From Patescibacteria group bacterium (GTDB lineage Bacteria; Patescibacteriota; UBA1384; XYA2-FULL-43-10; 1-14-0-10-43-13), in NCBI GenBank assembly GCA_041666325.1, contig JBAYHC010000004.1, positions 128,929-192,928 of the forward strand: a DNA stretch of 64,000 bases, read 5' to 3'. The translations under genes and the position numbers were made by a program. The notes beneath the pieces were generated by a model. It saw nothing but the letters and a program-made list of their open reading frames with translations, was not told the origin of the DNA and searched no databases. Below are positions 3,694 to 47,829 of this stretch, in pieces. Positions within the stretch are counted from its first letter, which is position 1. The number at the start of each line of letters is the position of its first letter.

Positions 3694-3846
3694 ATGTGGC
3701 GATACAGAGTTAGCGGCATTTTGGGAATTTTCGTAGCCATAGTTCCCTTTCTCGGCCTCCCCGGCGGCATATTTAGGGCATTACTTTTTTTCATCGGACT
3801 TACCATAGGCGCCCTTGGCCTTGGCAACGCTAGCGAAGATGGCTAG
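3694..3846 (+). CDS. Small hypothetical membrane protein (50 aa) that is absent from the ORF track
   Basis: An ATG at 3694 is preceded by a GGAG ribosome-binding site (ttggagtattaacATG). The product MWRYRVSGILGIFVAIVPFLGLPGGIFRALLFFIGLTIGALGLGNASEDG is a two-helix hydrophobic peptide. A TACAAT -10-like box lies at 3672-3677. Confidence 0.3.
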   Translation: MWRYRVSGILGIFVAIVPFLGLPGGIFRALLFFIGLTIGALGLGNASEDG

Positions 3847-5015
3847 AGGACGATAGTGCCACCACCAAGAACAATCTCTCCGTCGTAAAAAACAGCGGCT
3901 TGACCTGGAGTGATTGCTCGAACGGACTTGTCAAATCGTAGTTCATAGCTCATAGCTCGCCTGCCTGCATCGCCTGGAGCGAAGCGACTGCGGGCAGGTA
4001 GCTCGGGATTCACGCCCAAAATACAAGATTCAACACACGAAATGCGAGCCGGCACTGTCTCACTTCGGTACCTAATCTTTACGCCGATCACAGACGGAAT
4101 CACGGGTTTTTCTCCGATCCAATGAATGTTGCTAACTGTGGCCTGATCAGAAAATAAATCTTTTTCTTCGCCAACATAGACAATATTTTTCTCGATGTTT
4201 TTGGACACGACTAGATATGGCCCACCCCCCAACTTAATGTCCAGTCCATGACGCTGGCCGACCGTATAGTAGTAGACACCGTCATGCTCGCCAAGCTCTC
4301 GACCATCGATATGAATAATCCTTCCCTTCTCAGGCTTAATATAGTCCTTTAAAAAGTTCTTCATTTTGAGGGGACCGATGAAGCAAACACCTTGGCTGTC
4401 CTTCTTGGTCGCAGTTGATAGATCAAACTTCTCAGCCATCTTTCTGACCTCCGGCTTGGTATAGTCACCAACAGGGAAGATGGTCTGCGCCAGATGTCTC
4501 TGCTCCAAAACATACAAGAAGTAACTCTGATCCTTATTCTTGTCAGCCGCTTGCAGCAACTTGTAGCTACTGTTGCGATGCCCTTCCACCTCAGCCTCCT
4601 CGTTTTCCGCCTTGATACGTGCGTAGTGTCCAGTGGCGACAAAATTTGCACCCTCTGCTATCGCCTGGTCAAAAAACATGCCGAACTTAATTTCCTTGTT
4701 GCACATTAAGTCCGGGTTAGGGGTAATTCCACTCTTGTATGCCCCCACCATGTATTCTACGACCTTTTTTTCATACTGTTGGGTAAAGTCCCAGGTAAGT
4801 AGCGGAATTTCTAATTTCGCTGCAACGCGAGCGGCATCAGCCCTCTCCTCTTTCCACAGGCAATAATCAAGGCGGGATTCATCCCGCGAAGCTTCAGCGG
4901 AGCGGGACCAGAACTTCATAAAAACGCCAACAACAGAATAGCCCTGTTCCTTGAGCAATGCTGCTGCAACAGAACTATCAACCCCTCCGCTCATTGCGAC
5001 ATAAACCTTCTTCAT
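3843..5015 (-). CDS. mnmA: tRNA-specific 2-thiouridylase MnmA. It carries an in-frame insertion of a repeat element near the C-terminus.
   Basis: The N-terminal PP-loop is MKKVYVAMSGGVDSSVAA. The conserved C-terminal ...ITPGQAAVFYDGEIVLGGG motif is present. The inserted segment reads ELPARSRFAPGDAGRRAMSY and is encoded by the repeat copy at 3963-3998. Confidence 0.9.
   Translation of the reverse strand: MKKVYVAMSGGVDSSVAAALLKEQGYSVVGVFMKFWSRSAEASRDESRLDYCLWKEERADAARVAAKLEIPLLTWDFTQQYEKKVVEYMVGAYKSGITPNPDLMCNKEIKFGMFFDQAIAEGANFVATGHYARIKAENEEAEVEGHRNSSYKLLQAADKNKDQSYFLYVLEQRHLAQTIFPVGDYTKPEVRKMAEKFDLSTATKKDSQGVCFIGPLKMKNFLKDYIKPEKGRIIHIDGRELGEHDGVYYYTVGQRHGLDIKLGGGPYLVVSKNIEKNIVYVGEEKDLFSDQATVSNIHWIGEKPVIPSVIGVKIRYRSETVPARISCVESCILGVNPELPARSRFAPGDAGRRAMSYELRFDKSVRAITPGQAAVFYDGEIVLGGGTIVL
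3953..4005. repeat. Copy of the 36-bp core repeat GCCTGCATCGCCTGGAGCGAAGCGACTGCGGGCAGG. It lies inside mnmA and is flanked by tagctcg direct repeats.
   Basis: The core at 3963-3998 is identical to the cores at 27071-27106 and, in reverse complement, at 7266-7301 and 7312-7347. The flanking direct repeat is tagctcg...tagctcg. Confidence 0.8.
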
Positions 5016-6047: not shown

Positions 6048-6437
6048 ATGAGATTGTCGACAAAAACCTACTATGGGCTCCGAGCGATGACCAACTTAGC
6101 TCGCAAAGAAGAGGTCTCCCCGATTGCTGATATTTCTTTTGAAGAGGATATTCCTTTTGCTTTTCTTGAAAAGATCTTCCAGCAACTCAAGCGAGCAGGA
6201 TTAGTTAAATCAAAGATAGGATCGATGGGTGGATACGAGCTGGCCAGATCGCCCAAAGAAATAACGGCAGGACAGATCTTCGAAGCATTGGGCGAGGAGG
6301 TTTCGTCTTCGTTTTGCCCAGGCAACTCGAGCTGCCCCAAGTATGGCTCGTGCGGAACAAAGGATTTTTTATCCAAGTTAGAATCATCGATCGGCCAAAC
6401 ACTCGAATCAATTACATTGGAAAGGTTAATCGTCTAA
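6048..6437 (+). CDS. iscR: Rrf2-family transcriptional regulator (IscR-like)
   Basis: The N-terminus MRLSTKTYYGLRAMTNLA is typical of the Rrf2 HTH. A Cys cluster (CPGNSSCPKYGSC) is present. The gene sits immediately upstream of iscS. Confidence 0.8.
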   Translation: MRLSTKTYYGLRAMTNLARKEEVSPIADISFEEDIPFAFLEKIFQQLKRAGLVKSKIGSMGGYELARSPKEITAGQIFEALGEEVSSSFCPGNSSCPKYGSCGTKDFLSKLESSIGQTLESITLERLIV

Positions 6438-6438: not shown

Positions 6439-7725
6439 ATGAATAAGATTTACCTTGATCACTCAGCCACAACGCCACTCGATCCAGCAGTACTAGCAGC
6501 AATGATGCCATTCTTCAGTGACGACTTTGGCAACCCGGGATCCCTGCACTCTTTTGGCGTCGAAGCCAAGAAAGCAGTCGTCGAAGCGCGCAAGAATATT
6601 GCCTCCTTTTTGGGTTGCGATGAAACTGAAATCACTTTTACCTCCGGCGGAAGTGAAAGTGATAATCTTGCAATAAGGGGAATAGTAGAAAGTAGAAGGG
6701 GGAAAGTAGAAGGGGGAAGCAAGCCGCATGTCGTCACCAGTGCATTCGAGCACAAGGCTGTGTTGGACACTGTCAAAGCACTGGAAAAATCAGGTGATAT
6801 CGAGGCTACTTACGTTCAGCCGGGACCCAATGGTGTCATTCAGAGTGAAGACGTTAAAGCTGAAATTAAAGACAATACCATTCTAATTTCAATCATGTAC
6901 GTCAACAATGAAATCGGCACCATTCAGCCAATCCGCGAGATCGGAAAACTGGTCAAGAAGATCAATGCAAGCAGACACCTTCTATCCTCTACTTTCTACC
7001 CTCTACTTTTTCACACCGATGCTGTACAAGCTGCCGAATTTTGTCCGATGAATGTTAACGACCTCGGTGTTGACCTTCTTACCATGACCGCCCACAAAAT
7101 TTATGGCCCGAAGGCGATTGGCTTGCTTTATGCCCGGAAGGGGACGCCGATCCTGCCGGAAATTACTGGCGGAGGCCAGGAAAGAGGATTTCGCGCAGGA
7201 ACAGAGAACGTTCCCGGCATTGTCGGATTCGCAGCCGCTGTTCAGAAAATACGAGATCCAAGATACCTGCCCGCAGTCGCTTCGCTCCAGGCGATGCAGG
7301 CGGACGAGATACCTGCCCGCAGTCGCTTCGCTCCAGGCGATGCAGGCGGACGAGATACGACGCTGCTGCGCGACAAACTGATCGATGGCATTTTGAATAA
7401 CATTCCAAACTCTATTCTTAACGGCGATCGAACACACCTGGTCCCCCATATTGCCAACATTAGCTTTGTTAATGCCGAAGGTGAAGCAATCCTGCTCAAT
7501 CTTGATTTCTTGGGCATTGCCGTCTCTACCGGTTCGGCTTGCACCTCCCGCACCCTCGAGCCCAGCCATGTCCTCTCCTCGATGGGAGTCAGACCAGAAA
7601 ACGCCCATGGTTCAATTCGCTTCTCACTTGGCCGCGAAACTACAGCAGAGGAGATAGACCAAGTTCTCGAGATATTGCCAGGCATTATCAACAAATTAAG
7701 AGCAATGAGTCCATTCAAGAGCTAA
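6439..7725 (+). CDS. iscS: Cysteine desulfurase IscS/NifS. It carries an in-frame tandem insertion of the 46-bp repeat unit.
   Basis: The PLP-binding lysine is in the HKIYGPKAIG context. The SGSACTS active-site loop and a GNPGSLH motif are present. The inserted peptide reads ...LPAVASLQAMQADEIPARSRFAPGDAGG... and is encoded at 7261-7356. Confidence 0.9.
   Translation: MNKIYLDHSATTPLDPAVLAAMMPFFSDDFGNPGSLHSFGVEAKKAVVEARKNIASFLGCDETEITFTSGGSESDNLAIRGIVESRRGKVEGGSKPHVVTSAFEHKAVLDTVKALEKSGDIEATYVQPGPNGVIQSEDVKAEIKDNTILISIMYVNNEIGTIQPIREIGKLVKKINASRHLLSSTFYPLLFHTDAVQAAEFCPMNVNDLGVDLLTMTAHKIYGPKAIGLLYARKGTPILPEITGGGQERGFRAGTENVPGIVGFAAAVQKIRDPRYLPAVASLQAMQADEIPARSRFAPGDAGGRDTTLLRDKLIDGILNNIPNSILNGDRTHLVPHIANISFVNAEGEAILLNLDFLGIAVSTGSACTSRTLEPSHVLSSMGVRPENAHGSIRFSLGRETTAEEIDQVLEILPGIINKLRAMSPFKS
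7261..7356. repeat. Two tandem copies of a 46-bp unit lying inside iscS. Each unit is the reverse complement of the 36-bp core plus a ggacg linker and an agatac flank. The two copies are read in different frames.
   Basis: The cores at 7266-7301 and 7312-7347 are identical to each other. They are the reverse complement of the cores at 3963-3998 and 27071-27106. Confidence 0.85.
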
Positions 7726-7749
7726 GCCACAATGGGCAATTCGTGGCTT

Positions 7750-7805
7750 GTAGTTCGTATTTCGGAAACACTATGCAGTAGCCATAAACGAAATACGAGA
7801 TACAA
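7750..7805. repeat. Hairpin-forming intergenic element with stems TTCGTATTTCG / CGAAATACGAG
   Basis: The inverted repeat was seen directly between the iscS stop codon and the rubredoxin start codon. It belongs to the TACGAAA motif family. Confidence 0.5.
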
Positions 7806-7848
7806 TACACAAGATTGAACGAACAAAAACAAGGAAGCTGTTATCCCA

Positions 7849-8057: not shown

Positions 8058-8103
8058 CTATTTGTAATTTCGTATTTTCGTTTAATTTGTAATTTAGTAG
8101 GAG
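8058..8103. repeat. Intergenic element that is partly homologous to the element arms at 30142-30182 and 15815-15858. The shared core is ttcgtattttcgtt...taatttgtaatttagtaggag.
   Basis: The sequence similarity was seen directly. It ends in a TAGGAG Shine-Dalgarno-like box ahead of iscU. Confidence 0.45.
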
Positions 8104-8113: not shown

Positions 8114-8593
8114 GTGGAACAAGTACAATACTCACAACAAGTCCTAGACCACTTCTTTAATCCCAGAAACGTGGGTGAGATTTCTAATGCTGACGGCATC
8201 GGCGAGGTTGGCAACCTTCGTTGCGGCGATGTTATGTATGTGTATATCAAAGTAGGCGGAAGGCCCCGACAAAGTCGGGATAAACTCCAGGCGGAAGGCG
8301 AGACGCTTAGCGCCACTGAAGGCCGCGCCAAGCGTGGCGGAAGTGAAGAAGAGTATATTGAAGATATCAAATTCAAAACTTTAGGCTGCGCCGCCGCTAT
8401 CGCCTCAACAAGCATGATGACCGAGCTTGTTAAGGGAAAATCACTTGAGGATGCGATGAAAGTAACGCGCGACGATATCAATGAAGCCCTGGGGATTCTT
8501 CCCAAACAAAAATACCACTGCTCCATATTATCGGCAGACGGTATTCGCAAGGCGGTTGAGAACTATAGGGCAAGCAAAGCGGTAGGGCGGTAA
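8114..8593 (+). CDS. iscU: Fe-S cluster scaffold protein IscU/NifU. It contains a roughly 30-aa in-frame insertion inside its conserved core.
   Basis: The conserved Cys motifs are present: RCGDVM, KTLGCAAAIAS and KYHCSIL. Residues about 48-79 (GGRPRQSRDKLQAEGETLSATEGRAKRGGSEE) interrupt the conserved KV-x-IEDxKFKT segment. Confidence 0.85.
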   Translation: MEQVQYSQQVLDHFFNPRNVGEISNADGIGEVGNLRCGDVMYVYIKVGGRPRQSRDKLQAEGETLSATEGRAKRGGSEEEYIEDIKFKTLGCAAAIASTSMMTELVKGKSLEDAMKVTRDDINEALGILPKQKYHCSILSADGIRKAVENYRASKAVGR

Positions 8594-8638
8594 AGCAGTA
8601 GGGTAATAGTAGGTTTTTTTCTTATAACCTTACTAGCC

Positions 8639-10924
8639 TTATCCTGGCCATTCGGCGATCATGATGGACTCTGAAAGTGATGGATAAACCTCGCGTAGAT
8701 CCTGCCACACCGCCTCTGTCACAAATGGCATGAAGGGATGAAGCATTACCAGCGTTTCCGACAGAACACTCAAGAGAACTCTTCTGGTGTTGTTGTTCAG
8801 CTCGGCCGTAACATCCTCGCCAAGTTGCCCTTTGGATGCCTCGATATAGACATCGGCAAACGTGTGCCAGAAATAGTCATAGAGAAGTTCGCCGGCAAGT
8901 GAAAATTTAAATTTGTTAAGGTGTTCTGTCACCTTTTTCTTTACTTCCTCATGTTGTTTTAGGATGTCCCTGTCAGCGTCAGTCAACAGTCCACCGTTGA
9001 TTTTTAGATCAGAAACAATCGTTTGACCCAATTCGCCACTCTTTAGATCGCCCTCTGACGCTCGCAACATAACATAGCGAGAGGCGTTCCAAATTTTATT
9101 AGAGAAATTACGAAAACCCTTAATTTTGCCCTCGCCCACAGGTATGTCTTGACCGGGAGTAGATCCCACGGTCAGCGCCATACGGATAGCATCAGTGCCA
9201 TATTTCGGAATCAGGTCGAGCGGATCGAGCGCGTTGCCCAACGATTTGCTCATTTTGCGATTATGCTCGTCTCGAACCAATCCGTGAAAATAAACGGTCT
9301 CAAATGGCGCCTTGCCGGTAAACTCAAGGCCGAACATGATCATCCTCGCTACCCAGAAAAAGATAATGTCATAGGCAGTTTCCATCACAGTTGTTGGGTA
9401 AAAGTAATTGTAGTCACATGTGGTCATGCCCGGAGCATAGGGAAGGGGGTATTCGCACTTTTTGCTATCAATATTGTCGGGCCATCCCAGTGTTGAGAAA
9501 GGCCAGAGACCGGATGAGAACCAAGTATCCAAAACATCGGGGTCCTGCACCCAACCGGCGCCATCAGGCGCTTGCATGCCAACAAAAACTTCCTCCTCTC
9601 CCTTTTCATTTTTCTTATACCAAACAGGAATCTGGTGCCCCCACCAGAGTTGGCGCGAGATACACCAGTCACGAATATTGTCCATCCAGTGAAAATATAT
9701 CTTGTCGAAACGCTCAGGAATAATCTTGATTGTGCCATCTTCCACAACCTTCTTGGCCTTCTCGGCCAAAGGCCTCATCTTAACAAACCACTGCTTGGAC
9801 GGCAGCGGCTCAACTGCACCGCCGCAACGATAACAAACGCTTAGATTATTAAGGTATTCATCCTCTTTTTCGAGCAAATTGTTGCAAGAGAGCCAGGCAA
9901 TCAACTTTTCCTTTGCTTCGGTAACCTTTAGGCCAGTATAATTCTCTCCGGCCTCATCAGTCATACGGCCCTCTTCATTGATAACTTTAATAACCGGAAG
10001 ATCATGTTCCTCTGCCATGCGCCAGTCAACCATAGAGTGAGCAGGTGTGACACCAACAGCGCCGGTACCAAACTTGGCGTCAACAGCCCGATCCGCGACA
10101 ACCTTGATCTGTCGCTTGTTTCCGTCTATCTCAACATCAAAACTTTTACCAATATATCTTTGATAGCGTTTATCTGAAGGATTTACGGCCACGGCCGTAT
10201 CGCCAAGCTTCGTCTCCGGTCTGGTTGTTGCGATAGTAATCGGAAAATTCTTGTCGTATTTGAAATAGTATAGCTTGGATTTTTGTTCAACATGCTCAAC
10301 CTCATCATCGGCGATAGCTGTGTGACACCTTGGGCACCAGTTAACAATATATTCACCTCGATAGATGAGGCCTTTGCCATATAAATCGACAAATGCCCTC
10401 CGAACAGCAAGACTTAAGCCATCATCAAGCGTAAACCGCTCTCTCGACCAATCACAGGAGGCACCGAGACGACGTATCTGAGAGGTAATGATGTCGCCAT
10501 ACTTTCCTTTCCACTCCCAAACCTTCTCGACGAACTTCTCACGACCCAAATCGTTCTTATTTATCCCCTCTTTTCGTAGGGCTTTGTCGACAACGGTCTG
10601 AGTTGCTATACCAGCATGATCAGTGCCCGGCAGCCAAAGTGTTGGCTCTCCAAGGAGGCGATGGTAACGAGCCATAATATCCTCAACTGTCACAACCATG
10701 CCATGGCCCATGTGAAGCTTACCCGTAACGTTGGGTGGGGGCATTGATATCACAAAAGGCTTACCGTTGACTTCGCGATCATAGGCTAGCTGGCCGAGAA
10801 CTTTGCCACTATTGCCTTTCATGTTTATCTCTGGTTTAAAATAGCCGGAGCTTTCCCACTTTTGGTAAATCTTCTCCTCAAATTCCTTCGGCTCCCAGGT
10901 TTTTTCGATTGTTTTCTTTGCCAT
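8639..10924 (-). CDS. valS: Valine--tRNA ligase. It is a compact 761-aa form.
   Basis: The HIGH-class motif is PPPNVTGKLHMGHG and the KMSKS motif is NRKMSKSLGN. An editing-domain-like middle region is present. The N-terminal motif matches ValRS rather than IleRS or LeuRS. Confidence 0.8.
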   Translation of the reverse strand: MAKKTIEKTWEPKEFEEKIYQKWESSGYFKPEINMKGNSGKVLGQLAYDREVNGKPFVISMPPPNVTGKLHMGHGMVVTVEDIMARYHRLLGEPTLWLPGTDHAGIATQTVVDKALRKEGINKNDLGREKFVEKVWEWKGKYGDIITSQIRRLGASCDWSRERFTLDDGLSLAVRRAFVDLYGKGLIYRGEYIVNWCPRCHTAIADDEVEHVEQKSKLYYFKYDKNFPITIATTRPETKLGDTAVAVNPSDKRYQRYIGKSFDVEIDGNKRQIKVVADRAVDAKFGTGAVGVTPAHSMVDWRMAEEHDLPVIKVINEEGRMTDEAGENYTGLKVTEAKEKLIAWLSCNNLLEKEDEYLNNLSVCYRCGGAVEPLPSKQWFVKMRPLAEKAKKVVEDGTIKIIPERFDKIYFHWMDNIRDWCISRQLWWGHQIPVWYKKNEKGEEEVFVGMQAPDGAGWVQDPDVLDTWFSSGLWPFSTLGWPDNIDSKKCEYPLPYAPGMTTCDYNYFYPTTVMETAYDIIFFWVARMIMFGLEFTGKAPFETVYFHGLVRDEHNRKMSKSLGNALDPLDLIPKYGTDAIRMALTVGSTPGQDIPVGEGKIKGFRNFSNKIWNASRYVMLRASEGDLKSGELGQTIVSDLKINGGLLTDADRDILKQHEEVKKKVTEHLNKFKFSLAGELLYDYFWHTFADVYIEASKGQLGEDVTAELNNNTRRVLLSVLSETLVMLHPFMPFVTEAVWQDLREVYPSLSESIMIAEWPG

Positions 10925-12001: not shown

Positions 12002-13204
12002 TCACAAGGCCATATTTGAGTCGATTGTGACTTGATTCCAGGACTTTACGTCACCTTTGACCGCATGATAATAGCCTGCTAGAGCTATCATGGCGGCATT
12101 GTCGCCGCATAGGTGAATTGGAGGGACGTAGAGATCAGGCTTAATCTCCAGGCTATTTACGGCGTTTGCTAGGCTGTGGCGGAGATGCGTGTTTGCCGCT
12201 ACTCCGCCTGCAAGGATAATAGTTATTGGCTCGTATTTCTGCACGGCTTTCATCGTTTTAGCGACCAAAACATCAACTGCGGCATCCTCAAAGGCAGCTG
12301 CAATGCTAGCCTTGAGGTCAGCACTTAAGTGGCTTTTTTCCCTCACTTCCCGCAACACTGCCGTCTTTAAGCCGGAGAAAGAGAAATTAAATGTTCCATC
12401 ATTAAGCAGTGGCCGCGGAAAACTAACCGCATTCCTGGCCGCGGCTTGGCTAGTCCTGTATTTGCCGGCCAATTTCGAAACTGCGGGCCCTCCGGGGTAA
12501 CCTATACCTAATAGTTTTGCCACTTTATCGAAGGCTTCGCCAGCAGCGTCGTCGAGGGTTTGACCAATAATTTCGTATTTCCCGTGATCTCTCATCAATA
12601 TCAGGGATGTATGGCCACCCGAAACCACCAGCGCAAGGGCAGGGAAGCTGATTTCACGTAGCAGGTAGCATGTATCATGTATCGTGCCTTGTTTGTTTTG
12701 CTCTTTTCGGTTTTGGGCTGTTGGATCCTTACTTTGGATTTTCGATTTCGGATTTTGGATTTCCTCTGCGGCAGCAGAGTATATATGGCCCTCAATGTGA
12801 TGAATTGGAACTATGGGCAAATCGCAGGCATAGGCAAGTGACTTTGCCGCATTAAAGCCAACCAGGAGCGAGCCAATCAATCCTGGGCCAGAAGTAACGG
12901 CAATATGGCTAATTTTGTGGTGCAAAGAATTGATCGCTCCTTGAATATCTGGGTGATCACTGAAACCAGCCTGCAAAAGTGCCTCGGCTACAACCGGCAC
13001 AATTGCTTCCATGTGCGCTCTAGAGGCAACCTCCGGCACGATACCGCCGGTTTTTGCATGCAGGTCAACCTGAGAAGAAACAATGTTCGACAAAATGACA
13101 GGCGGGTTAACGCCATCGCCCGTCACTACTGCGGCTGCGGTCTCGTCGCAAGATGACTCAATTCCCAAAATGATATATTTTTTCTCTGTGTCTATGTGTG
13201 TCAT
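12002..13204 (-). CDS. tsaD: tRNA N6-adenosine threonylcarbamoyltransferase TsaD (Kae1/Gcp). It carries a roughly 35-aa low-complexity in-frame insertion.
   Basis: Conserved TsaD motifs are present: GIESSCDET, HHIEGH, VVSGGHT and DDAAGEAFDK. The insertion QNPKSKIQSKDPTAQNRKEQNKQGTIHDTCYLLRE is encoded by (gattttc)-type repeats at 12652-12760. Confidence 0.9.
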   Translation of the reverse strand: MTHIDTEKKYIILGIESSCDETAAAVVTGDGVNPPVILSNIVSSQVDLHAKTGGIVPEVASRAHMEAIVPVVAEALLQAGFSDHPDIQGAINSLHHKISHIAVTSGPGLIGSLLVGFNAAKSLAYACDLPIVPIHHIEGHIYSAAAEEIQNPKSKIQSKDPTAQNRKEQNKQGTIHDTCYLLREISFPALALVVSGGHTSLILMRDHGKYEIIGQTLDDAAGEAFDKVAKLLGIGYPGGPAVSKLAGKYRTSQAAARNAVSFPRPLLNDGTFNFSFSGLKTAVLREVREKSHLSADLKASIAAAFEDAAVDVLVAKTMKAVQKYEPITIILAGGVAANTHLRHSLANAVNSLEIKPDLYVPPIHLCGDNAAMIALAGYYHAVKGDVKSWNQVTIDSNMAL

Positions 13205-13403: not shown

Positions 13404-14345
13404 ATGAATAACTCAATCTTCCAAACCGAATCGTGGGCAGAATTTAAACTTTCCACCGGTTACTCGGACAAATACCGGCTGGATGATGTTTTGGTTTTGG
13501 ACAAGAAATTACCACTACTCCGGTCGATGCTTTACTCGCCGATGGTAAGCGCAAGTCAGGAATCGAGGCTTCTAAACCAGGAGTTTATCAGTAGCATCAG
13601 GTCGCTGGCAACAAAAACAAATGCAATCTTTTATCGCCTAGAACTGGGCGTCCCCATCGACGAGATACGAGATACGAGATACGAGATACGAAAGCTCGGC
13701 TTTCGCAAGTCTTTCGAGGAGATGCAGCCCGAGCACACTCTCGTCCTCGACATAAATAATACCGAGGAAGATATTCTTGCCCAGATGAAGCCAAAGGGCA
13801 GATACAATATCAAGATTGCCAGCAAAAACCAAATCGAGATTATGGTCTCAGACAAACCGGGCCAAGAGCTGGACCACTTCTATGAGCTTTACGAAACAAT
13901 GGCAAGGCGCCAAAATATCTCCCGCAGAAACAAAGCATACTTCGAGGCTCTACTTGAAATCATGTCTAGATTGGGGTATATTAGAGTATACAACGCCGTG
14001 GCCACAGTTGAGAACAAGAAGCATGTTTTGGCAGCTGCGATCATTTGCTTCTATGGCGAGCGAGCAACGTATCTCTTCGGCGGTTCAAGCAATGAACACC
14101 GAAATCTCATGGCTCCATATCTTCTCCATTGGCAGATAATCAAAGACGCCAAGCAGATTGGATGTAGCGAATACGACCTTTTCGGTGTTGCGCCGAATGA
14201 CGACGAAAAGCACCCATGGGCTGGTGTAACACGCTTCAAAAACCAATTTGGCGGCAAACGAGTTGATCTTGTCGGCAGTTGGGATCTAGTGTTCAAGCCA
14301 ACTGAATACGAGATATTTAAATTTGTCGAAAAAATTAGACGCTAG
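13404..14345 (+). CDS. FemAB-family peptidyltransferase (peptidoglycan interpeptide bridge formation). It contains an in-frame (GAGATAC)4 heptamer run.
   Basis: The C-terminal motif ...GGSSNEHRNLMAPYLLHWQIIKDAKQIGCSEYDLFGV... is typical of the FemAB/FemX family. The heptamer repeat at 13662-13689 encodes ...DEIRDTRYEIRK... Confidence 0.75.
   Translation: MNNSIFQTESWAEFKLSTGYSDKYRLDDVLVLDKKLPLLRSMLYSPMVSASQESRLLNQEFISSIRSLATKTNAIFYRLELGVPIDEIRDTRYEIRKLGFRKSFEEMQPEHTLVLDINNTEEDILAQMKPKGRYNIKIASKNQIEIMVSDKPGQELDHFYELYETMARRQNISRRNKAYFEALLEIMSRLGYIRVYNAVATVENKKHVLAAAIICFYGERATYLFGGSSNEHRNLMAPYLLHWQIIKDAKQIGCSEYDLFGVAPNDDEKHPWAGVTRFKNQFGGKRVDLVGSWDLVFKPTEYEIFKFVEKIRR
13662..13689. repeat. Tandem heptanucleotide repeat (GAGATAC)x4 lying inside the femAB-like gene
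   Basis: The sequence cgagatacgagatacgagatacgagatacgaaa was seen directly. Confidence 0.9.
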
Positions 14346-15747
14346 ATATGACGAACAGAGACCGGAGCCGAAGATCACTCGCGTCCAACCGCTAGAAATT
14401 AATTGTCAATCCCGAATTATGAAAAGATTTATATCAAAAATTGTCCCACAGTTGACTAAGAACAGGTACCACAAGCTTCAAGCTAATTACGCCCGGTTCC
14501 GCTATGGCAACCCAAGCCGCAAACTTGTTGTCATCGGCGTAACGGGAACAAAGGGAAAAACAACCGTCTGTAACATGATCGCCTCAATTCTTGATGCCAG
14601 CGGCAAGCCTAATGCCATGGAGACAACCATCAACACCAAAATCCTCGACAAGATCACTCCTCATACAACAAAGGCTCGCTGGGTTACTACTCCGCCACCA
14701 TCAGTTGTTCAACAATTCTTGCGCGATGCAAAAAAGGCCGGTTGCGAATACGCCATCCTCGAAGTCACCTCCCAAGCTATCGATCAGTACCGAATCTGGG
14801 GGATTGAGTTCGACGTGCTGGTCTATACCAATCTTTCGCACGATCACCTTGATTATCATCTGACAAAGGAAAAATATCTCGAAGCTAAACTCAAGGTATT
14901 CAGAGATAATCCCAAGGCTAAATTTGTCATCAACCATGATGACAGTTACTGGAATCGCTTTTACTCGCTACCAGCAACAGAGCGGTTCCTGTATTCAATC
15001 AAGCAACCCATGGAACACGGAGCGGTTGCTCGAAAAATCTTGCCGGGCTCAAGCGACATCACCTTTACCGTTGCCCACGACGACGGCCAGATCACAATCA
15101 ACCTGAATCTTCCCGGCCAATTCAATGTCCTAAACTCGCTAGCAGCGTTCTGTGTGGGTCTAGCACTCGAACTGGAACCAGAGAAGATTAAGAAGGGATT
15201 AGAGGACATTAAGCAAATTACGGGCAGGATGGAACCGATCAGAACATCCTCGAAGCAAGACTTCACCGTCATCGTTGATTACGCTCATAACCCAGACTCC
15301 CTCAAGAACGTTTATGAAACGACTCGCGAAAGCATGAAAAAGGCCGGAGGAAGACTTATCGCAGTCCTCGGAGCAACCGGCAGAAGAGACAAGACAAAAA
15401 GACCATTGATGGGCGCACTTGCCGGGCGGTATGCAGACCTAGTTATTTTTACCAACGAAGACCCGTACGACGAAGACCCAAACACAATTATCGAAGAGGT
15501 TGCTGCCGGCATTCACAGGGGAGCACTCAAGAAACACCAGTGGCATCTGGGGCGCAACTACTGGAAGGTGATCGATAGGGCCCAAGCCATTCATCAAGCA
15601 ATCAAAGAAGCACACAAGGGCGATGTCGTCATCATCACCGGGAAGGGTGCCGAAGAGGTCATGGCAGTCGGCCTAGATGAATTTATTCCATTTTCTGACC
15701 GAAGCATCGCCAAGCAAGAGCTCTTGCGACGCTTCCGGGAAGACTAA
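14323..15747 (+). CDS. murE: Mur ligase family protein, MurE-like (UDP-MurNAc-dipeptide: diamino-acid ligase). It has a TTG start at 14323, or alternatively an ATG at 14419.
   Basis: The P-loop is VIGVTGTKGKTT. DYAHNPDSL and GRRDKTKRPLMG motifs typical of MurE are present. The gene overlaps the end of femAB. Confidence 0.7.
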   Translation: MSKKLDARYDEQRPEPKITRVQPLEINCQSRIMKRFISKIVPQLTKNRYHKLQANYARFRYGNPSRKLVVIGVTGTKGKTTVCNMIASILDASGKPNAMETTINTKILDKITPHTTKARWVTTPPPSVVQQFLRDAKKAGCEYAILEVTSQAIDQYRIWGIEFDVLVYTNLSHDHLDYHLTKEKYLEAKLKVFRDNPKAKFVINHDDSYWNRFYSLPATERFLYSIKQPMEHGAVARKILPGSSDITFTVAHDDGQITINLNLPGQFNVLNSLAAFCVGLALELEPEKIKKGLEDIKQITGRMEPIRTSSKQDFTVIVDYAHNPDSLKNVYETTRESMKKAGGRLIAVLGATGRRDKTKRPLMGALAGRYADLVIFTNEDPYDEDPNTIIEEVAAGIHRGALKKHQWHLGRNYWKVIDRAQAIHQAIKEAHKGDVVIITGKGAEEVMAVGLDEFIPFSDRSIAKQELLRRFRED

Positions 15748-15780
15748 ACGCCGCCCCTACAAACTTACGAATCACTCGAA

Positions 15781-15858
15781 ATTACCAAATTACGAAACTA
15801 CCAATAACGGTATTTGTATTTTCGTATTTTCGTTTGAATTCGTACTTTGGTAGGGGAT
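15781..15858. repeat. Palindromic intergenic element. Its arms are taccaaattacgaaact... and ...gaattcgtactttggtagg. It is related to the elements at 30051-30182 and 8058-8103.
   Basis: The inverted repeat and the similarity to the other copies were seen directly. Confidence 0.5.
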
Positions 15859-15872
15859 TTGGCCACGCGGTC

Positions 15873-15901
15873 TTGACAACAGGCGCCTTTTTTGTTACAA
15901 T
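15873..15901 (+). promoter_or_regulatory. Near-consensus sigma70 promoter: TTGACA, 17 bp spacer, TACAAT
   Basis: TTGACA lies at 15873-15878 and TACAAT at 15896-15901, with an exact 17-bp spacer. It is about 90 bp upstream of the small ORF at 15990. Confidence 0.45.
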
Positions 15902-15989
15902 GACATAATTTGCCAATCTGGAATCAAAGGTAAATCGATGCTGGCGACCATACCAGACCATAAATGTCAAGTAACAACCTAGGAGGGAA

Positions 15990-16166
15990 ATGTCAAAAAT
16001 CAAAGTTAAAAAAATAGAGGATCCGAATACTGAGGTCCCGATTCATAGCGCCTTCGACCGCATAGAGGCGATCAAGGCCGAGATCTCCGGCTTTACAACA
16101 GCGCCGCACCTTGCCGAGGTAGAGGTCTTTGATATGTGGGGGGACAGCTCAGCAGAGACAAGCTAG
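15990..16166 (+). CDS. Small hypothetical protein (58 aa, acidic) that is absent from the ORF track. It has a strong ribosome-binding site and a strong promoter.
   Basis: An AGGAGGG site lies 6 nt upstream of the ATG at 15990. The product is MSKIKVKKIEDPNTEVPIHSAFDRIEAIKAEISGFTTAPHLAEVEVFDMWGDSSAETS. I do not recognise its family. Confidence 0.35.
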   Translation: MSKIKVKKIEDPNTEVPIHSAFDRIEAIKAEISGFTTAPHLAEVEVFDMWGDSSAETS

Positions 16167-16217
16167 CCCACACGAGAGGGCTAGAAACAAAAAACCAACC
16201 CAATGACTAATCTTGCG

Positions 16218-17228
16218 TTATTGATTATCATTCTCGTGTCTGGGTTCTGGGCTAGGAACCTGAAGGTCAACACCAACAGGTTTTTTTGTTTGCAAGGTTT
16301 TGCCATGAAAAGCTTGATGGACTTCGCGCAGGTGCTGATCGGTCACATGGGTATAAACCTGGGTTGTCGTGATTGAAGAGTGACCGAGCAGTGATTGAAC
16401 ACTGCGGATATCAGCACCAGCCATCAAAAGGTCCGTAGCGAATGAGTGACGTAGCGTATGGGGCGAGACATGCTTCAATACTCCAGCCTTTTTAGCACAG
16501 CGCTCAACTATGCGCTGAACTGTTCTGACTGAGATGCGATCATTCTTGGGTGAAATAAAGAGTGGTTCGCTTGTCTTACCGGAGAGTGAACCCTCCTCAG
16601 GTTTCGTGAATCCTCGATTCTTAATGTATTGCTCCAACCACTGTTTGGCCTCGCCCGAGAGGAAAACTACACGCAGCTTTCGACCCTTGCCCAGCACAGC
16701 TATTTCACCACTTTCGAGATTTATATCATCAAGGTCCAAACTTACTAACTCCGATACTCGCATTCCAGTCGAGAAGAGAACCGCCAGGATTGCCCGGTCG
16801 CGCAAGCCCACCAACTTGCTTGTATCGAGTGAATTAAAGATCGAAGAAACTTCTCCTCCCTGTAAAAAATTTATCTCTCGGTCACCAATCTTGGCGAGAG
16901 AAACCTTTTCTGGAGAAAGAGAATTTACGCCTCGAAAAGCGAGGTAGCGCAAAAAAGCACGGAGAGAAATTACGTGATAATTCTGAGTCACTTTCTTTAG
17001 ACCGTGACCGGCGGGCTCCTTGAGCCGATTTACGTACAGCTTGTACTGTCTGACTATCTCCTGGTCAATCATCGACGGCACTAATTGCTCGCCCGACCTC
17101 TGAGTCTTGAGCCACTCGAGAAAACGACCGAGATATCGATCATAATTTTCGATAGTCAGAGCAGACTGGCCTTTGTCTAATTCGCAGTACTCGAGGAACT
17201 CTCTTTTTAGATCGAATAAATCCTTCAT
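16218..17228 (-). CDS. xerC: Tyrosine site-specific recombinase (XerC/XerD family). The likely start is the internal ATG at 17228. The track start at 17303 would read through 15-bp tandem repeats.
   Basis: The C-terminal catalytic region is ...HTLRHSFATDLLMAGADIRSVQSLLGHSSITTTQVYTHV. The N-terminal core-binding domain is present. In the long form the N-terminus would read GHLVLSRLVLSHLVLSHLVLSH, which is encoded by repeats. Confidence 0.8.
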   Translation of the reverse strand: MKDLFDLKREFLEYCELDKGQSALTIENYDRYLGRFLEWLKTQRSGEQLVPSMIDQEIVRQYKLYVNRLKEPAGHGLKKVTQNYHVISLRAFLRYLAFRGVNSLSPEKVSLAKIGDREINFLQGGEVSSIFNSLDTSKLVGLRDRAILAVLFSTGMRVSELVSLDLDDINLESGEIAVLGKGRKLRVVFLSGEAKQWLEQYIKNRGFTKPEEGSLSGKTSEPLFISPKNDRISVRTVQRIVERCAKKAGVLKHVSPHTLRHSFATDLLMAGADIRSVQSLLGHSSITTTQVYTHVTDQHLREVHQAFHGKTLQTKKPVGVDLQVPSPEPRHENDNQ

Positions 17229-17303
17229 AAAAAAGTGCGAAAGTACTAAGTGTGAAAGTACTAAGTGTGAAAGCACCAAGCGTGAAAGTACTAAGTGCCC
17301 CAC
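17229..17303. repeat. About four tandem copies of a 15-16 bp unit (GTGAAAGTACTAAGT) immediately 5' of the recombinase ATG
   Basis: The sequence gtgcgaaagtactaagtgtgaaagtactaagtgtgaaagcaccaagcgtgaaagtactaagtg was seen directly. Related motifs occur at 49320-49465. Confidence 0.8.
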
Positions 17304-17386
17304 CCGGGGCCCCTTTGCGGGGTGAAAGGAATCGCATCATTGCGACGCCACTTAGTGCTTAGAACCTTCACACCTTCATGCTATAT

Positions 17387-17950
17387 TTATGCTTCATATT
17401 TCCAGTATTTTTCGTATGTATGAACAAACCGATAGGCGGCCACACCAGAGAGAATGCCAAGTATGGCGCCAGCAATAGTGTCAGAGGGGTAGTGCAAACC
17501 GGTACCAACTCGCCCGAGAGCAACAAAGATTGCCAATACTAACAAAAAAGCACCCAGCTTCTTGTGGCCATACAAAAAAACACTTGTGGCTATAGCAAAA
17601 ACTATATAAGTGTGGCTAGAAGGAAAGGAGCTAATGCGGCCTTCGGCCAGCTCCCGAACGACGGGATTAATTATTGTCTCGTGCGTTATAAAAGGCCTCG
17701 GACGACGCCAAAACATAAAGATCAAGAGATCGATAAATCCACCCAGGGCCATCGCCGTAAAGGAACAAAGGAATGCGTTGATCCGGCGCATCCAGATGAG
17801 ATAGGTAAAAGAGACCAGAAAAAAGACAATTCCATACTGGGCAAAGAAATAATAGAACTTAAGCCACGCCGCAGACTCCACGCCTCTCTGATACAGAGCT
17901 TCGTAGATGGTGTAGTCATAATATCTGATAATATCAAGATATTTTTCCAT
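17387..17950 (-). CDS. PAP2-superfamily phosphatase (BcrC/PgpB-like undecaprenyl-diphosphate phosphatase)
   Basis: The three PAP2 motifs are present: FWRRPRPF (KxxxxxxRP), FPSSHT (PSGH) and GRVGTGLHYPSDTIAG (SRxxxxxHxxxD). The protein has multiple TM helices. Confidence 0.75.
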   Translation of the reverse strand: MEKYLDIIRYYDYTIYEALYQRGVESAAWLKFYYFFAQYGIVFFLVSFTYLIWMRRINAFLCSFTAMALGGFIDLLIFMFWRRPRPFITHETIINPVVRELAEGRISSFPSSHTYIVFAIATSVFLYGHKKLGAFLLVLAIFVALGRVGTGLHYPSDTIAGAILGILSGVAAYRFVHTYEKYWKYEA

Positions 17951-18174
17951 AGGATAATTTTAGCACAAAAAAAGTAGAAGTACTAAGGACACTATCTCAG
18001 CTGCTCGCACCCTTCTGTCACCCCGTATCAAGCACGGGATCGATTAAACTCAAAACACTAATTATCTGGATGCTGAATCAAGTTCAGCATGACACAATTT
18101 AAGGATACGAGCGAAAGCAGCAACACGCTGTTTGTCCATTTGAACTTTATCGGCCAACAACATATAATGGTTGC

Positions 18175-19023
18175 ATGATCGAAATCGGAAGGTCTTTTAT
18201 TATTGGGGCGATTCAGGGCATTGCTGAATTTTTGCCGATCTCCTCTTCTGGTCACCTTGTGCTTCTTCCCTATATTTTCAAGTGGGATTATCAGGGCCTG
18301 GCTTTTGATGTTGCCCTCCACTTTGGCACAGTGGTAGCACTGGTTGCCTACTTCTGGCGCGATTGGCTTGCGCTTTTCTTTAGCGCGGTAAGAATACGAA
18401 ATACAAAATATAAAATACGGGAATACCCAGACAACCTGCTCTGGCAAATTATTGTCGCCTCAATCCCCGCAGCAATGGTTGGCCTACTAATCAATGGCTA
18501 TGTCGAAAAATACCTGCACTCTCCTGCACTCCTGGCCTTCAATCTGATTTTCTTCGGTTGGCTGCTCTGGTTCGTAGACAAGAGGGCCAAGGCAAAATAC
18601 GATCTTCAACAAGCTCAGGTCGGCCTGAGTGGCAATAGACCGCCCGAAATACGAAATACGAGATACTCGCATTTGTTCCTCATGGGCATCGCCCAGTCTG
18701 TCGCCTTGGTCCCTGGCGTTTCTCGCTCCGGTATCACAATGACCGCCGGACGATCTCTGGGCTTAAGCAGAGAAAATTCAGCTAGGCTTTCCTTTTTGTT
18801 GGGCACCCCTGCGATGATCGGCGCGTTTATTGTCGAGTTTAAAGATATCGATAAGGGAGGCCTAAGCGCAGCATTCTTGATCGGCGTTATCTCAGCAGCT
18901 GTTTTTGGTTTTATCGCTATTAAATATTTGCTACAATACTTAAAGAAAAGCGACTTCTCAATTTTTTTGTGGTATAGGATCGCTCTGGCCATAATGGTTC
19001 TGGCCCTATATTTCACAAGATAA
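18175..19023 (+). CDS. uppP: Undecaprenyl-diphosphatase UppP (BacA). It carries two in-frame inserts encoded by RAAATAC heptamer runs.
   Basis: The UppP signature is ...EFLPISSSGHL.... The inserts ...VRIRNTKYKIREYPDN... (18391-18428) and ...PPEIRNTRYSHL... (18646-18666) coincide with the heptamer repeats. Confidence 0.85.
   Translation: MIEIGRSFIIGAIQGIAEFLPISSSGHLVLLPYIFKWDYQGLAFDVALHFGTVVALVAYFWRDWLALFFSAVRIRNTKYKIREYPDNLLWQIIVASIPAAMVGLLINGYVEKYLHSPALLAFNLIFFGWLLWFVDKRAKAKYDLQQAQVGLSGNRPPEIRNTRYSHLFLMGIAQSVALVPGVSRSGITMTAGRSLGLSRENSARLSFLLGTPAMIGAFIVEFKDIDKGGLSAAFLIGVISAAVFGFIAIKYLLQYLKKSDFSIFLWYRIALAIMVLALYFTR
18391..18428. repeat. Heptamer-like run (gaatac gaaatac aaaatat aaaatac gggaatac) lying inside uppP
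   Basis: Seen directly in the sequence. Confidence 0.75.
18646..18666. repeat. Heptamer run GAAATAC GAAATAC GAGATAC lying inside uppP
   Basis: Seen directly in the sequence. Confidence 0.85.
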
Positions 19024-26367: not shown

Positions 26368-26432
26368 CATCTCAGGTCACAAAGCAAGTAGGCATGTAGG
26401 CTAGTAGGCAGAGTTGCACCACTGAAGAGTTA

Positions 26433-26493
26433 TTACTAGCTTACTAGCTTACTAGCTTACTAGCTTACTAGCTTACTAGCTTACTAGCTTATT
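26433..26493. repeat. Microsatellite (TTACTAGC)x7 with a partial eighth unit
   Basis: Seen directly in the sequence. The unit is related to the pervasive GCTTAC / CTAGTAAG intergenic motif family. Confidence 0.9.
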
Positions 26494-27060: not shown

Positions 27061-27116
27061 GCCTCTCGCCCGCCTGCATCGCCTGGAGCGAAGCGACTGC
27101 GGGCAGGCCTCTCACA
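27061..27116. repeat. Intergenic copy of the 36-bp core repeat (27071-27106), flanked by cctctc direct repeats
   Basis: The core is identical to the one at 3963-3998. The flanks are cctctc...cctctc. The spurious minus-strand ORF 27050..27373 reads through it. Confidence 0.8.
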
Positions 27117-30043: not shown

Positions 30044-30050
30044 ACAAGTC

Positions 30051-30182
30051 CCTACAAAATTACGAATAGACGCACGAAAATACGAAAGTACGAATGGTTC
30101 TCCCCCTAGGACAGGAGGAGACAAAGGGAAAGCACGAAGAATTGTAGTTTCGTAATTTCGTTGGATTCGTAATTTTGTAGGA
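30051..30182. repeat. Palindromic MITE-like intergenic element. It has roughly 45-bp inverted arms (CCTACAAAATTACGAA...) around a 40-bp centre, and ends in a TAGGAG ribosome-binding site.
   Basis: The left arm at 30051-30100 matches the reverse complement of the right arm at 30142-30182. It lies between the virB4 stop codon and the next gene. Confidence 0.55.
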
Positions 30183-30206
30183 GCTTTGGAAATTGGAGGG
30201 AAATAG

Positions 30207-32869: not shown

Positions 32870-32957
32870 ATGAGGCTAGTAAGCTGGTAGGCAAGTAGGC
32901 ATTTAGGTAATAGTGATTCGCTGTGCTGTTGCTTCAGCCTACCAACGTACCTGCCTA

Positions 32958-32974
32958 CCCCGCCTTCGGCGGGG
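32958..32974 (+). terminator. Perfect GC hairpin CCCCGCC-ttcg-GCGGGG embedded in a longer GCTAGTAAG / CTTACTAGC inverted repeat
   Basis: Seen directly in the sequence. It lies about 90 bp downstream of the 31535..32869 gene. Confidence 0.4.
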
Positions 32975-32999
32975 CCTACTAGCTTAATCTTTGTGACTA

Positions 33000-44668: not shown

Positions 44669-44941
44669 CTAGCTATTATTAACTATTCTCACTCCCTTTA
44701 CGATCTTCCTGCCAATCTTTTTATTGAGGTATTCTATGATTTCTTCCTCTTTCATCTGAAGCTCTTGGGCTGCCGAAGAAGAGGTCACAGAAACCTTCAA
44801 AATCCCCCTAGAAAAGGATACTGACCGAAAAGGATACTTGCCCCAACTCTCTGCATAAAAACAAATCTGGGCACCTACCGTCTCCTTGATGAGGCCTTTC
44901 TTGGCCATCGAAGAGAAGATAAACTCGCCAATTTTTTTCAT
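44669..44941 (-). CDS. DUF721 / DciA-like small protein lying downstream of recF
   Basis: The protein is 90 aa. It sits after recF, as DUF721 genes do in the dnaA-dnaN-recF-DUF721 synteny of many bacteria. I did not see a strong motif-level match. Confidence 0.45.
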   Translation of the reverse strand: MKKIGEFIFSSMAKKGLIKETVGAQICFYAESWGKYPFRSVSFSRGILKVSVTSSSAAQELQMKEEEIIEYLNKKIGRKIVKGVRIVNNS

Positions 44942-44977
44942 AAAGCTCCAAAACCTAAGTGGCTTAAGTAACTCAGG

Positions 44978-46093: not shown

Positions 46094-46121
46094 TCACAAT
46101 CTTACTTGCTTGCATGCTGGT

Positions 46122-47222: not shown

Positions 47223-47258
47223 AGAATCCTTTCTAAATACAACACACCGATTTATCAC

Positions 47259-47829
47259 GATGTATTGTCATCCCAACCCCCGCACTTGAGTGCGGGGCAA
47301 GCTCCACGGAGGGATCTCTTGTTTCAAAACAACCATTCAATTTATTCTAAGATTTCTCGACTCAGCCCATAAGTCGACTTCGCTCGAAATGACGAAGCAG
47401 GCGGTTATCAACACGAACAGGGAAACTTGTTGATAACGTTCTAAAAATTTTTCTTTGTGCGAGCGGTAATTCGCCCCAATGAGAAATTTTTGTGGAAAAG
47501 GGCAATTTTGCTCCGAAATCCTGTCAACAACCTGATGATAAGTTAGTATTTTTGCCCTTAACCGGTTTGACGATTAATTTAATCCACAGATTTAGTATAC
47601 TTTTGAACAGCTTATCCCAAGTTTTTTAAACAGATTATCACCAGTCTTATTTCCATTTTTTTCTCTCAGGGATGATATTTTTTGGCTTTTCCCCATCTTC
47701 CACAGCCCTTACTATTACTATTACTGTATTAATAACCTTTTTATTACAAGATCTAACTGTGTATAAAGTGTGACAAAACGTAACAAAGGAACGATTCAAA
47801 CTTATCTCAGAAAACTCGTGGGTGAAACA
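47259..47829. promoter_or_regulatory. Candidate replication origin (oriC) in the dnaA-dnaN spacer. It contains about 5-6 DnaA boxes and an AT-rich tract.
   Basis: The boxes are: TTATCAACA at about 47405 and again in inverse orientation at about 47432 (tgttgataa); TTTTCCACA in inverse orientation at about 47490; TAATCCACA at about 47580; TTATCACCA at about 47632. An AT-rich stretch at about 47640-47760 contains tactattactattactg. Confidence 0.5.

Follow-up and report, generated by a model that had tools for sequence, protein, structure and literature searches.

Tandem heptanucleotide arrays in femX, uppP and other housekeeping genes of a Patescibacteria genome, and a clade-wide population of similar arrays in protein loops

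The DNA discussed here, called the window below, is a stretch of 64,000 nucleotides (nt) from a metagenome-assembled genome (MAG) of the Patescibacteria, or candidate phyla radiation (CPR), whose nearest named relatives are Candidatus Berkelbacteria (GenBank assembly GCA_041666325.1, contig JBAYHC010000004.1, positions 128,929 to 192,928). Short tandem arrays of a 7-nt unit, RARATAC, are embedded in frame in two of its genes, femX (FemAB family) and uppP (UppP/BacA), and the origin and meaning of these arrays are the subject of this paper. A first reading made from the letters alone (hereafter the sequence-only reading) had regarded them as a potential phase-variation switch or, alternatively, as footprints of a mini-element. 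The synteny with relatives is conserved, and the genes, arrays and hairpins of the locus are collected in Table 1. For comparison, three syntenic loci of relatives (L004, L006 and L007; about 60% amino-acid identity) were fetched via exact-protein look-ups, a clade set of 65 FemX-related metagenome loci (447 kb) was obtained from a protein-based metagenome scan, and 80 UppP loci of other bacteria (1.26 Mb), collected with generic UppP peptide patterns and belonging mostly to distant phyla, were used as the control set. The metagenome scan gave no strain-level relative, the best match being 61% identical.

Table 1. Genes, heptanucleotide arrays and hairpin elements of the window (TRF, Tandem Repeats Finder; aa, amino acids)
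Feature	Positions	Strand	Basis or measure
mnmA (MnmA)	3843-5015	-	Pfam
mnmA in-frame 38-nt element (3961-3998), CGAGCTA on both sides, then TGAGCTA TGAACTA	3939-3998	-	TRF, period 7 at 3939-3958
38-nt element, copy in mnmA	3961-3998	-	
Rrf2	6048-6437	+	Pfam
iscS (IscS-like)	6439-7725	+	Pfam
iscS array 1, (GAAAGTAGAAGGGG)x2.2 or AGTAGAA, in a variable loop	6677-6719	+	TRF
iscS array 2, TCTACTT	6980-7009	+	TRF; reverse complement of array 1, 270 nt downstream
iscS composite insertion: AAAATAC GAGATCC AAGATA, then two 38-nt hairpin elements, each followed by ACGAGATA	7246-7358	+	TRF, 46-bp period x2.1, 100%
38-nt element, first tandem copy in iscS	7266-7303	+	
38-nt element, second tandem copy in iscS	7312-7349	+	
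Intergenic hairpin, arms GTATTTCG and CGAAATAC GAGATAC, unit family of the coding tracts	7738-7810	+	fold -21.8 kcal/mol, z = -4.1
Rubredoxin, 64 aa	7849-8043	+	Pfam
iscU (IscU)	8114-8593	+	Pfam
Class-I aminoacyl-tRNA synthetase	8639-10924	-	Pfam
tsaD (TsaD)	12002-13204	-	Pfam
tsaD insertion with two heptamer arrays, (GAAATCC)x4 at 12736-12763 and (TACATGA)x4.3 at 12654-12683, gene-strand reading	12654-12763	-	TRF
femX (FemAB family)	13404-14345	+	Pfam
femX heptamer array AC(GAGATAC)x4GA, 32 nt, perfect	13660-13691	+	TRF, period 7, 4.6 copies, 100% matches
Mur ligase	14323-15747	+	Pfam
Long TACGAAA-type intergenic hairpin downstream of the Mur ligase gene, arms of about 8-nt units	15757-15856	+	fold -42.9 kcal/mol, z = -7.0
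Tyrosine recombinase	16218-17228	-	Pfam
PAP2	17387-17950	-	Pfam
uppP (UppP/BacA)	18175-19023	+	Pfam
uppP tract 1, degenerate loop-1 array AGAATAC GAAATAC AAAATAT AAAATAC GGGAATAC	18391-18428	+	TRF at 18393-18418, period 7, 3.7 copies, 84%
AAAATAC, opening unit of the split array in loop 2 of uppP	18594-18600	+	sequence, codons
uppP in-frame 45-nt insertion, 15 aa DLQQAQVGLSGNRPP, with hairpin CTCAGGTCGGCCTGAG at 18614-18629	18601-18645	+	alignment, fold
uppP tract 2, GAAATAC GAAATAC GAGATAC	18646-18666	+	TRF at 18645-18666, period 7, 3.1 copies, 93%
38-nt element, intergenic copy	27070-27107	-	
Second long TACGAAA-type intergenic hairpin	30050-30190	+	fold -51.9 kcal/mol, z = -6.7

The femX array is perfect over its whole length: where four GAGATAC units had been noted, TRF gives 4.6 copies without a mismatch, starting at codon 87 of 313 and encoding residues E87 to K97 (EIRDTRYEIRK). 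In an alignment of 22 orthologues (50-62% identity) this segment is a variable loop of the usual length, and one orthologue (P0124) has LIRDTYY at the position of the array. The AlphaFold (AF2) models are confident overall, with predicted local distance difference test (pLDDT) values of 90 and 91.5, and the array peptide of FemX forms a turn and a short helix (residues 91-97) with a pLDDT of about 80 against about 95 in its neighbours.

In uppP the two RARATAC tracts that had been described are present, both of them degenerate. Tract 1, which encodes RIRNTKYKIREY from codon 73 of 282, sits in a loop whose length and sequence are hypervariable (alignment A1); the loop of the window is among the shortest of the orthologues, several of which have long low-complexity inserts there, and it is modelled as non-helical (residues 72-87, pLDDT about 72). 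Tract 2 encodes EIRNTRY from codon 158 of 282, at the start of the modelled helix 164-176, and aligns with the orthologue segment xIKNxSY before a transmembrane helix; P0027 has EIKNTRY. Adjoining tract 2 upstream is the 45-nt segment, which is an insertion relative to 21 of the 22 orthologues and the least confident block of the model (pLDDT 66). When positions 18601-18645 are removed in silico, AAAATAC GAAATAC GAAATAC GAGATAC, exactly four units, is left, and the resulting peptide, AKYEIRNTRYSHLF, has the length of the orthologues; read in this way, the 45-nt hairpin splits a four-unit array and no unit is duplicated. Four other CPR orthologues of UppP (P0007, P0010, P0052 and P0104) have long inserts in the same two loops, whose peptides (e.g., ...VIARSEATKQS..., ...RHPERSEGS..., ...VIPAKAGIH...) presumably resemble translated copies of widespread GC-rich palindromic repeats. 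The earlier statement that both tracts coincide with peptide insertions was mostly mistaken: the femX loop has its normal length, tract 2 of uppP is a conserved segment, and the true insertion is the 45-nt hairpin upstream of it. Conservation of the peptide segments across orthologues, which the sequence-only reading had named as an observation that would speak against it, is found for tract 2 of uppP and in part for femX.

The orthologous uppP DNA at tract 2 is itself quasi-periodic, being gaa ata aag aat aca aga tat in locus L154 and gat gta cga aat aca tca tac in locus L155. When the window (AAA TAC GAA ATA CGA AAT ACG AGA TAC) is set beside L154 (AAA TTA GAA ATA AAG AAT ACA AGA TAT), all four codon differences (TTA to TAC, AAG to CGA, ACA to ACG and TAT to TAC) go toward the unit GAAATAC, and that from AAG to CGA is a three-base change; these shifts are a direct sign of homogenisation. 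The femX array and both uppP tracts are read in frame as E/R-I-R-D/N-T-R/K-Y, and this common peptide is not an independent coincidence because it follows from the common unit, three heptamers always making seven codons. A structural-RNA reading of the three coding tracts was dropped, since their folds are no better than those of shuffled sequences (z = -0.7, +0.1 and -1.0).

Arrays of the same kind are found in iscS, tsaD and mnmA and at the end of iscU, so that the implied link with the cell wall, real as the arrays of femX and uppP are, is not specific. In iscS the two arrays lie at codons ~82-86 and ~183 in the window and in L007 alike, with unrelated units, L007 having a different repeat at the first loop and (AAAATCG)x3.9 at the second; furthermore, L007 IscS is without about 19 aa at the site of the composite insertion. 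In the mRNA, the two iscS arrays of the window could base-pair with each other over a conserved coding segment. In TsaD of L006 and L007, arrays are located in the same indel region of the alignment, and the Pfam TsaD match is split in two stretches; the Pfam match to the C-terminal domain of MnmA is likewise interrupted. IscU has a GC-rich insertion of ~30 aa (8255-8350) with small hairpins (e.g., CCCGACAAAGTCGGG), at a loop that holds other inserts in L006 and L007, and a 16-nt tandem array (8566-8603) codes for its C-terminal tail.

The octamer CGARATAC occurs 15 times in the window against 3.0 +/- 1.7 expected, a count reached in none of 100 shuffles; 13 of the 15 occurrences lie between 7.3 and 18.7 kb and 14 are on the plus strand. 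Compared with dinucleotide shuffles, the window has 10 arrays of period 7 (1.15 expected) and 11 of period 8 (1.5 expected), and period-7 arrays number 17 in 21 kb of L007 (0.3 expected) and nine in 5.3 kb of L004 (0.05 expected). The clade loci contain 310 period-7 arrays in 447 kb, that is, 6.9 per 10 kb, period 7 being dominant by far, against 0.66 per 10 kb in the control bacteria, in which periods 9, 12 and 6 dominate. After dereplication, 228 of 312 period-7 arrays (73%) lie inside open reading frames (ORFs) of at least 100 aa, 86% of that sequence being coding; an array most often has four units, and the median span is 28 nt. Coding arrays show a slight excess of 7-8 over 6 units (9 vs 2; outside ORFs, 3 vs 7), which fits three-unit steps and is too weak to rely on (post hoc hypergeometric p ~0.02). 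Period-7 arrays are a hallmark of this Patescibacteria clade, at a roughly tenfold density.

Furthermore, the same loops carry different units in different lineages. Just upstream of the FEEMQPE motif of FemX, the loop is encoded by GAGATAC x4.6 in the window, GTGATAC x3.3 in L004, ACCTTCG x4 in L007 and GCAATTGA x2.1 in L006, and in other clade loci by CTCCCAA, CAAATAC x4, CGACCGA, GTCAACC x4, CTCGGCT, ATTCATA, a TAATACC-type unit or an 8-mer; in one sub-clade it is an ordinary loop without repeats. Loop 1 of uppP has inverted GCTGAAG/GGCCTTA arrays in L007, ACGCCCT x3.7 in L154 and GTCGGCA x4 together with a 14-mer x2 in L155, and loop 2 of L007 has GCCTTCG x4, then a 44-nt hairpin, then GGCCTTCGG. 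Pairs of units with at most one mismatch (rotation and either strand allowed) make up 16.5% within a locus against 6.1% between loci, a likeness within loci that neither 300 permutations nor 300 composition-preserving shuffles reached even once.

Between related loci (85-96% identical), array columns differ at 28% and other columns at 14.6%, and the contrast is larger in single pairs (45% vs 8% in L100/L111; 50% vs 11% in L108/L112). At several sites in related pairs, one array is replaced by an array of another unit. In L094 (~1373-1600) and L133, which are about 96% identical, a loop cassette of ~230 nt is wholly different, with arrays in one and a GC-rich palindromic insert in the other; this looks like a swap of whole cassettes. 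Three clade pairs of at least 98% identity (98-100%), on the other hand, are without a single difference over 607 nt of arrays. The Logan assemblies SRR6484324 and SRR18595301 show 100.000% identity with the window along 8.4 and 4.5 kb that include uppP and not femX, and an ENA contig (ERZ27249449) that matches the window over 20.8 kb including femX may be its own source. The exact FemX, UppP and IscS proteins have two NCBI accessions each (MAG entries whose independence is not established), and their 90% clusters are singletons without length variants. When JGI metagenome contigs were scanned for the flanks of femX separated by 2-6 units, there were 0 matches. The comparison of copy number across assemblies and relatives, which had been proposed as the check on switching, thus shows no variation at the consensus level, whether in assemblies, protein clusters or the 607 nt of arrays. 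An assembly artefact was rejected, the arrays (~28-32 nt) being shorter than the assembly k-mers and identical in independent assemblies. From the divergence figures, the 607-nt identity and the identical assemblies, it follows that the arrays turn over fast on an evolutionary scale and show no hypermutable behaviour between near-identical genomes.

The explanation that we favour, with moderate confidence, is that the tracts of femX and uppP belong, as ordinary local members, to a genome- and clade-wide population of short heptamer arrays (~4 units, ~28 nt) in tolerant loops. Arrays of 7-nt units would be seeded on quasi-periodic native sequence or on earlier arrays, and slipped-strand mispairing or short-tract conversion, a step that we infer, would repeatedly re-homogenise them, probably aided by extrusion of embedded hairpins; small hairpin mini-elements would often come to lie inside or beside them. 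To survive selection, an array would have to be in frame, without stop codons and placed in a structurally tolerant variable loop, and the orthologous loops of sister lineages would keep the period and carry lineage-specific units. At the protein level the arrays would merely supply loop residues, in agreement with the models, which are otherwise confident and less so in the loop or turn regions that hold the array peptides, and gain or loss of one unit would create a null allele of an essential gene, to be purged rather than used as a switch. Several points weigh against this explanation. The generating process is inferred rather than observed; period 7 and the preference for about four units are left unexplained, and simple slippage does not explain how units are replaced at constant loop length. 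The presence of RARATAC at at least five loci here and of GCCTTCG at at least five in L007 suggests spread in trans, beyond local slippage. In addition, the window is only 2.4 times richer in period-7 arrays than the real-genome controls, the independent assemblies are few, with femX lying outside the two Logan contigs, and consensus assemblies hide minority alleles, so a low-level switch may exist.

A tentative alternative, distinctly less probable, is that this Berkelbacteria-like clade has an active undescribed mechanism, either a mobile array-hairpin-array composite or a templated writing or conversion of repeats, which places arrays of 7-nt units, about four per array and specific to the genome, in the permissive loops of essential genes and keeps re-homogenising them. 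If this were true, orthologous loops would keep their position, period and length and their sequence would be rewritten lineage by lineage.

Mini-elements enter the question through a 38-nt GC-rich hairpin (CCTGCCCGCAGTCGCTTCGCTCCAGGCGATGCAGGCGG; fold -18.4 kcal/mol), which is present in four copies with at most one mismatch and lies in frame in MnmA and IscS. The 46-bp unit that the sequence-only reading had recognised in iscS is this element plus an 8-nt spacer, and it is indeed flanked by CGAGATAC, at 7305 and 7351. At each of its three insertion sites, which lie in or adjoin tandem arrays, the 38-nt element has direct repeats of 7-8 nt on its two sides: CGAGCTA/CGAGCTA in mnmA, CAAGATA/CGAGATA in iscS and, in element orientation, GTGAGAGG/GCGAGAGG at 27070-27107; CGAGATA of iscS is the femX unit. 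These repeats are ambiguous, because any insertion into a tandem array looks repeat-flanked, and the flanking heptamers would themselves promote the 46-bp duplication. In L007, the hairpin motif of the window's uppP (CTCAGG.CG..CTGAGT) is found at the same uppP loop between GCCTTCG arrays, and a second copy lies in tsaD between GCCTTCG-type arrays. Within the window no transposase was identified, and a Y1 transposase gene was seen near the L007 locus only.

It is conceivable, if unlikely, that the heptamers are footprints or target-site duplications of mobile hairpin mini-elements, whereby insertion would duplicate a 7-bp target and excision with re-insertion would leave heptamers behind, or that the array-hairpin-array composite itself is mobile. 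The repeats flanking the 38-nt element at its three sites, the identity of an iscS flank with the femX unit, the extra heptamers beside the element in mnmA and iscS, the arrays on both sides of the L007 hairpin in uppP as well as in tsaD and the sharing of units within a genome all argue for it. However, the uppP hairpin of 45 nt sits in its array without a duplicated unit and its removal restores exactly four units; the femX array and most arrays of the clade have no adjoining hairpin and end in partial units (4.6 copies in femX), as slippage would give; and, besides the ambiguity of the flanks, no transposase is linked to the elements, the Y1 gene near L007 being the only one seen. What stands of the footprint idea is therefore the link between tracts and hairpins, which is real, as the 7-8-nt flanks and the split uppP array attest, and whose direction of cause may run either way; an excision footprint is not borne out by uppP, in which no unit is duplicated.

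As had been noted, the motif also recurs at 7789-7803 and, complemented, in intergenic palindromes. Apart from the three hairpins of Table 1, long imperfect hairpins downstream of genes, with arms of ~8-nt tandem units with a TAC/GTA core, lie at 26384-26491, 32870-32990, 50375-50470, 60519-60576 and 61476-61557. Among their families of units are TACGAAA, GCTAGTAA/GCAAGTAG and GCGGTAAA; a perfect (TTACTAGC)x7.4 makes up one of the arms, and several of these hairpins enclose a small GC-rich hairpin (e.g., 32945-32962 and 52449-52478). The hairpin downstream of the Mur ligase gene has TRF 8-mers at 15779-15804 and 15816-15833, and a direct-repeat family (D5) includes the hairpin at 30050-30190 together with 8059 and 15811. 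The rubredoxin gene is bracketed by CGAAATAC-type units upstream (7789-7805) and by complementary ATTTCGTA-type units of period 8 downstream (8060-8099), where the segment 8050-8110 forms no hairpin alone (z = 0.0). Moreover, a 15-nt unit (AAGTGTGAAAGTACT) is repeated 4.3 times just upstream of the start codon of the recombinase gene, with its complement ~60 nt off and a GC-rich hairpin between them (17233-17297 and 17350-17380, in the spacer between the PAP2 and recombinase genes).

That the heptamers act as a cis-element, either as sites for an RNA- or DNA-binding factor or by rare codons (ATA, CGA and AGA) that pace translation at the loop, is more doubtful still than the footprint reading. 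The positions of the arrays are conserved across lineages, the preference for about four units is that of GGGNATC in Xanthomonas and Nostoc (PMC4692102), the TAACTGA heptamer repeats have been proposed to be regulatory (PMC4679880), and hairpins in the intergenic regions behind genes contain this unit family as well. The unit sequence, however, is conserved neither between lineages nor between arrays of one genome, in which only 16.5% of pairs are similar; the arrays are found in both orientations, whatever the functional class of the gene; and the coding tracts have no significant RNA structure and no Rfam match, the Rfam scan having returned two tRNAs only.

A phase-variable contingency switch, in which slippage by one heptamer would turn FemX or UppP off by a frameshift in the manner of neuO, is very improbable. 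It is true that the unit of 7 nt is not a multiple of three, so that a one-unit change shifts the frame, as had been pointed out, and this is a property of the sequence rather than evidence of its use. The perfect femX tract implies recent homogenisation, arrays turn over on evolutionary time scales, and neuO, ON only when its repeat number is divisible by three (PMC13001214), is a precedent. Yet the long uninterrupted tract typical of contingency loci (well above ~6-10 units) is absent from femX (4.6) and from uppP (3.7 at 84% and 3.1 at 93%), where 3-53 units with a mode of 20 are found in neuO. Nor are the tracts placed at the 5' end or promoter of an accessory, surface or restriction-modification gene: they begin at codons 87 of 313 in FemX and 73 and 158 of 282 in UppP, in the middle of single-copy housekeeping genes, and the same arrays are found in iscS, tsaD and mnmA. 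All assemblies are identical, the protein clusters are without length variants, relatives of at least 98% identity show 0 differences in 607 array nt, and tract 2 of uppP encodes a conserved segment. With two of the three tracts imperfect and no length variation at the consensus level, the switch proposed for FemX and UppP is not upheld.

An artefact of chance or codon usage, by which AT-rich codons for I, K, N, T, R and Y would give a 7-nt rhythm, as the quasi-periodic native xIKNTxY of UppP in orthologues with other array units (L154 and L155) might suggest, is effectively refuted by the perfect 32-nt array, by 15 motif matches where 3 are expected and by the tenfold excess of the clade over real-genome controls. 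A molecular drive for genome-specific motifs, like that of DNA uptake sequences, was ruled out because the units differ among the arrays of one genome.

Elsewhere in the window, dciA, recF, dnaN and dnaA are grouped on the minus strand (44669-49251); the replication origin is probably within or adjoining 47.3-50 kb, with the heptamer tracts ~30 kb away. Positions 19811-44237 hold a type-IV-secretion-like cluster (a weak TrbL/VirB6 match, PrgI, a TraC-like protein and a VirB4/TraG-type ATPase), followed by cell-wall hydrolases (CHAP/glucosaminidase and M23) and an ORF of 3173 aa without a Pfam match.

The result removes the attractive idea of phase-variable cell-wall enzymes in an uncultured bacterium of the episymbiont type, which is unsupported here. 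Of perhaps wider use is the clade-wide pattern: arrays that are mostly intragenic and recur at particular loops would account for some of the lineage-specific insertions and odd loops of low complexity that are well known from CPR proteins, and they affect the annotation, alignment and structure prediction of these proteins. Moreover, the clade offers a natural setting in which to ask why bacteria favour 7-nt units, a question that has been open since the over-representation of heptamers was first noted (PMC4692102). A literature search found no report on heptamer arrays in Patescibacteria or Berkelbacteria, the search being limited and no proof of novelty.

Among known systems, neuO, the O-acetyltransferase gene of the CUS-3 prophage of E. 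coli K1, has a heptanucleotide tandem repeat whose copy number varies (VNTR), with 3-53 repeats among 64 genomes (mode 20), and is ON only at repeat numbers divisible by three (PMC13001214). What it shares with the window is a tandem repeat of 7 nt within a coding sequence, all three frames of the repeat being read. Its repeats, however, stand at the 5' end of a surface-modification gene that is accessory and phage-borne, and vary between strains and within cultures, 66% of the genomes being OFF, whereas the window has 3 to 4.6 units, mid-gene, in housekeeping genes, with no variation seen. Closer in form are the over-represented heptameric simple sequence repeats (SSRs), namely the short tandemly repeated repetitive (STRR) sequences of heterocystous cyanobacteria, GGGNATC of Xanthomonas and Nostoc (PMC4692102) and TAACTGA of Beggiatoaceae, Cyanobacteria and Bacteroidetes (PMC4679880), which share with the window arrays the dispersed tandem heptamers, the several unit families, the strong excess, the preference for about four units and the lack of a known generating mechanism. 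Those heptameric SSRs are reported to be mainly intergenic, under-represented in ORFs and built of one or a few fixed units per genome; unlike them, the arrays of the clade lie mostly (73%) inside ORFs, have many lineage-specific units and recur in orthologous protein loops. Finally, Rickettsia palindromic elements (RPEs) are small dispersed palindromes in frame in unrelated housekeeping genes at tolerated sites (PMC10969869), and the 38-nt element of mnmA and iscS and the 45-nt uppP hairpin resemble them, unlike the heptamer arrays, which are not palindromic. RPEs are ~100-150 bp long and neither built of nor flanked by tandem heptamers, whereas the elements described here are of 38-45 nt and lie inside heptamer arrays.

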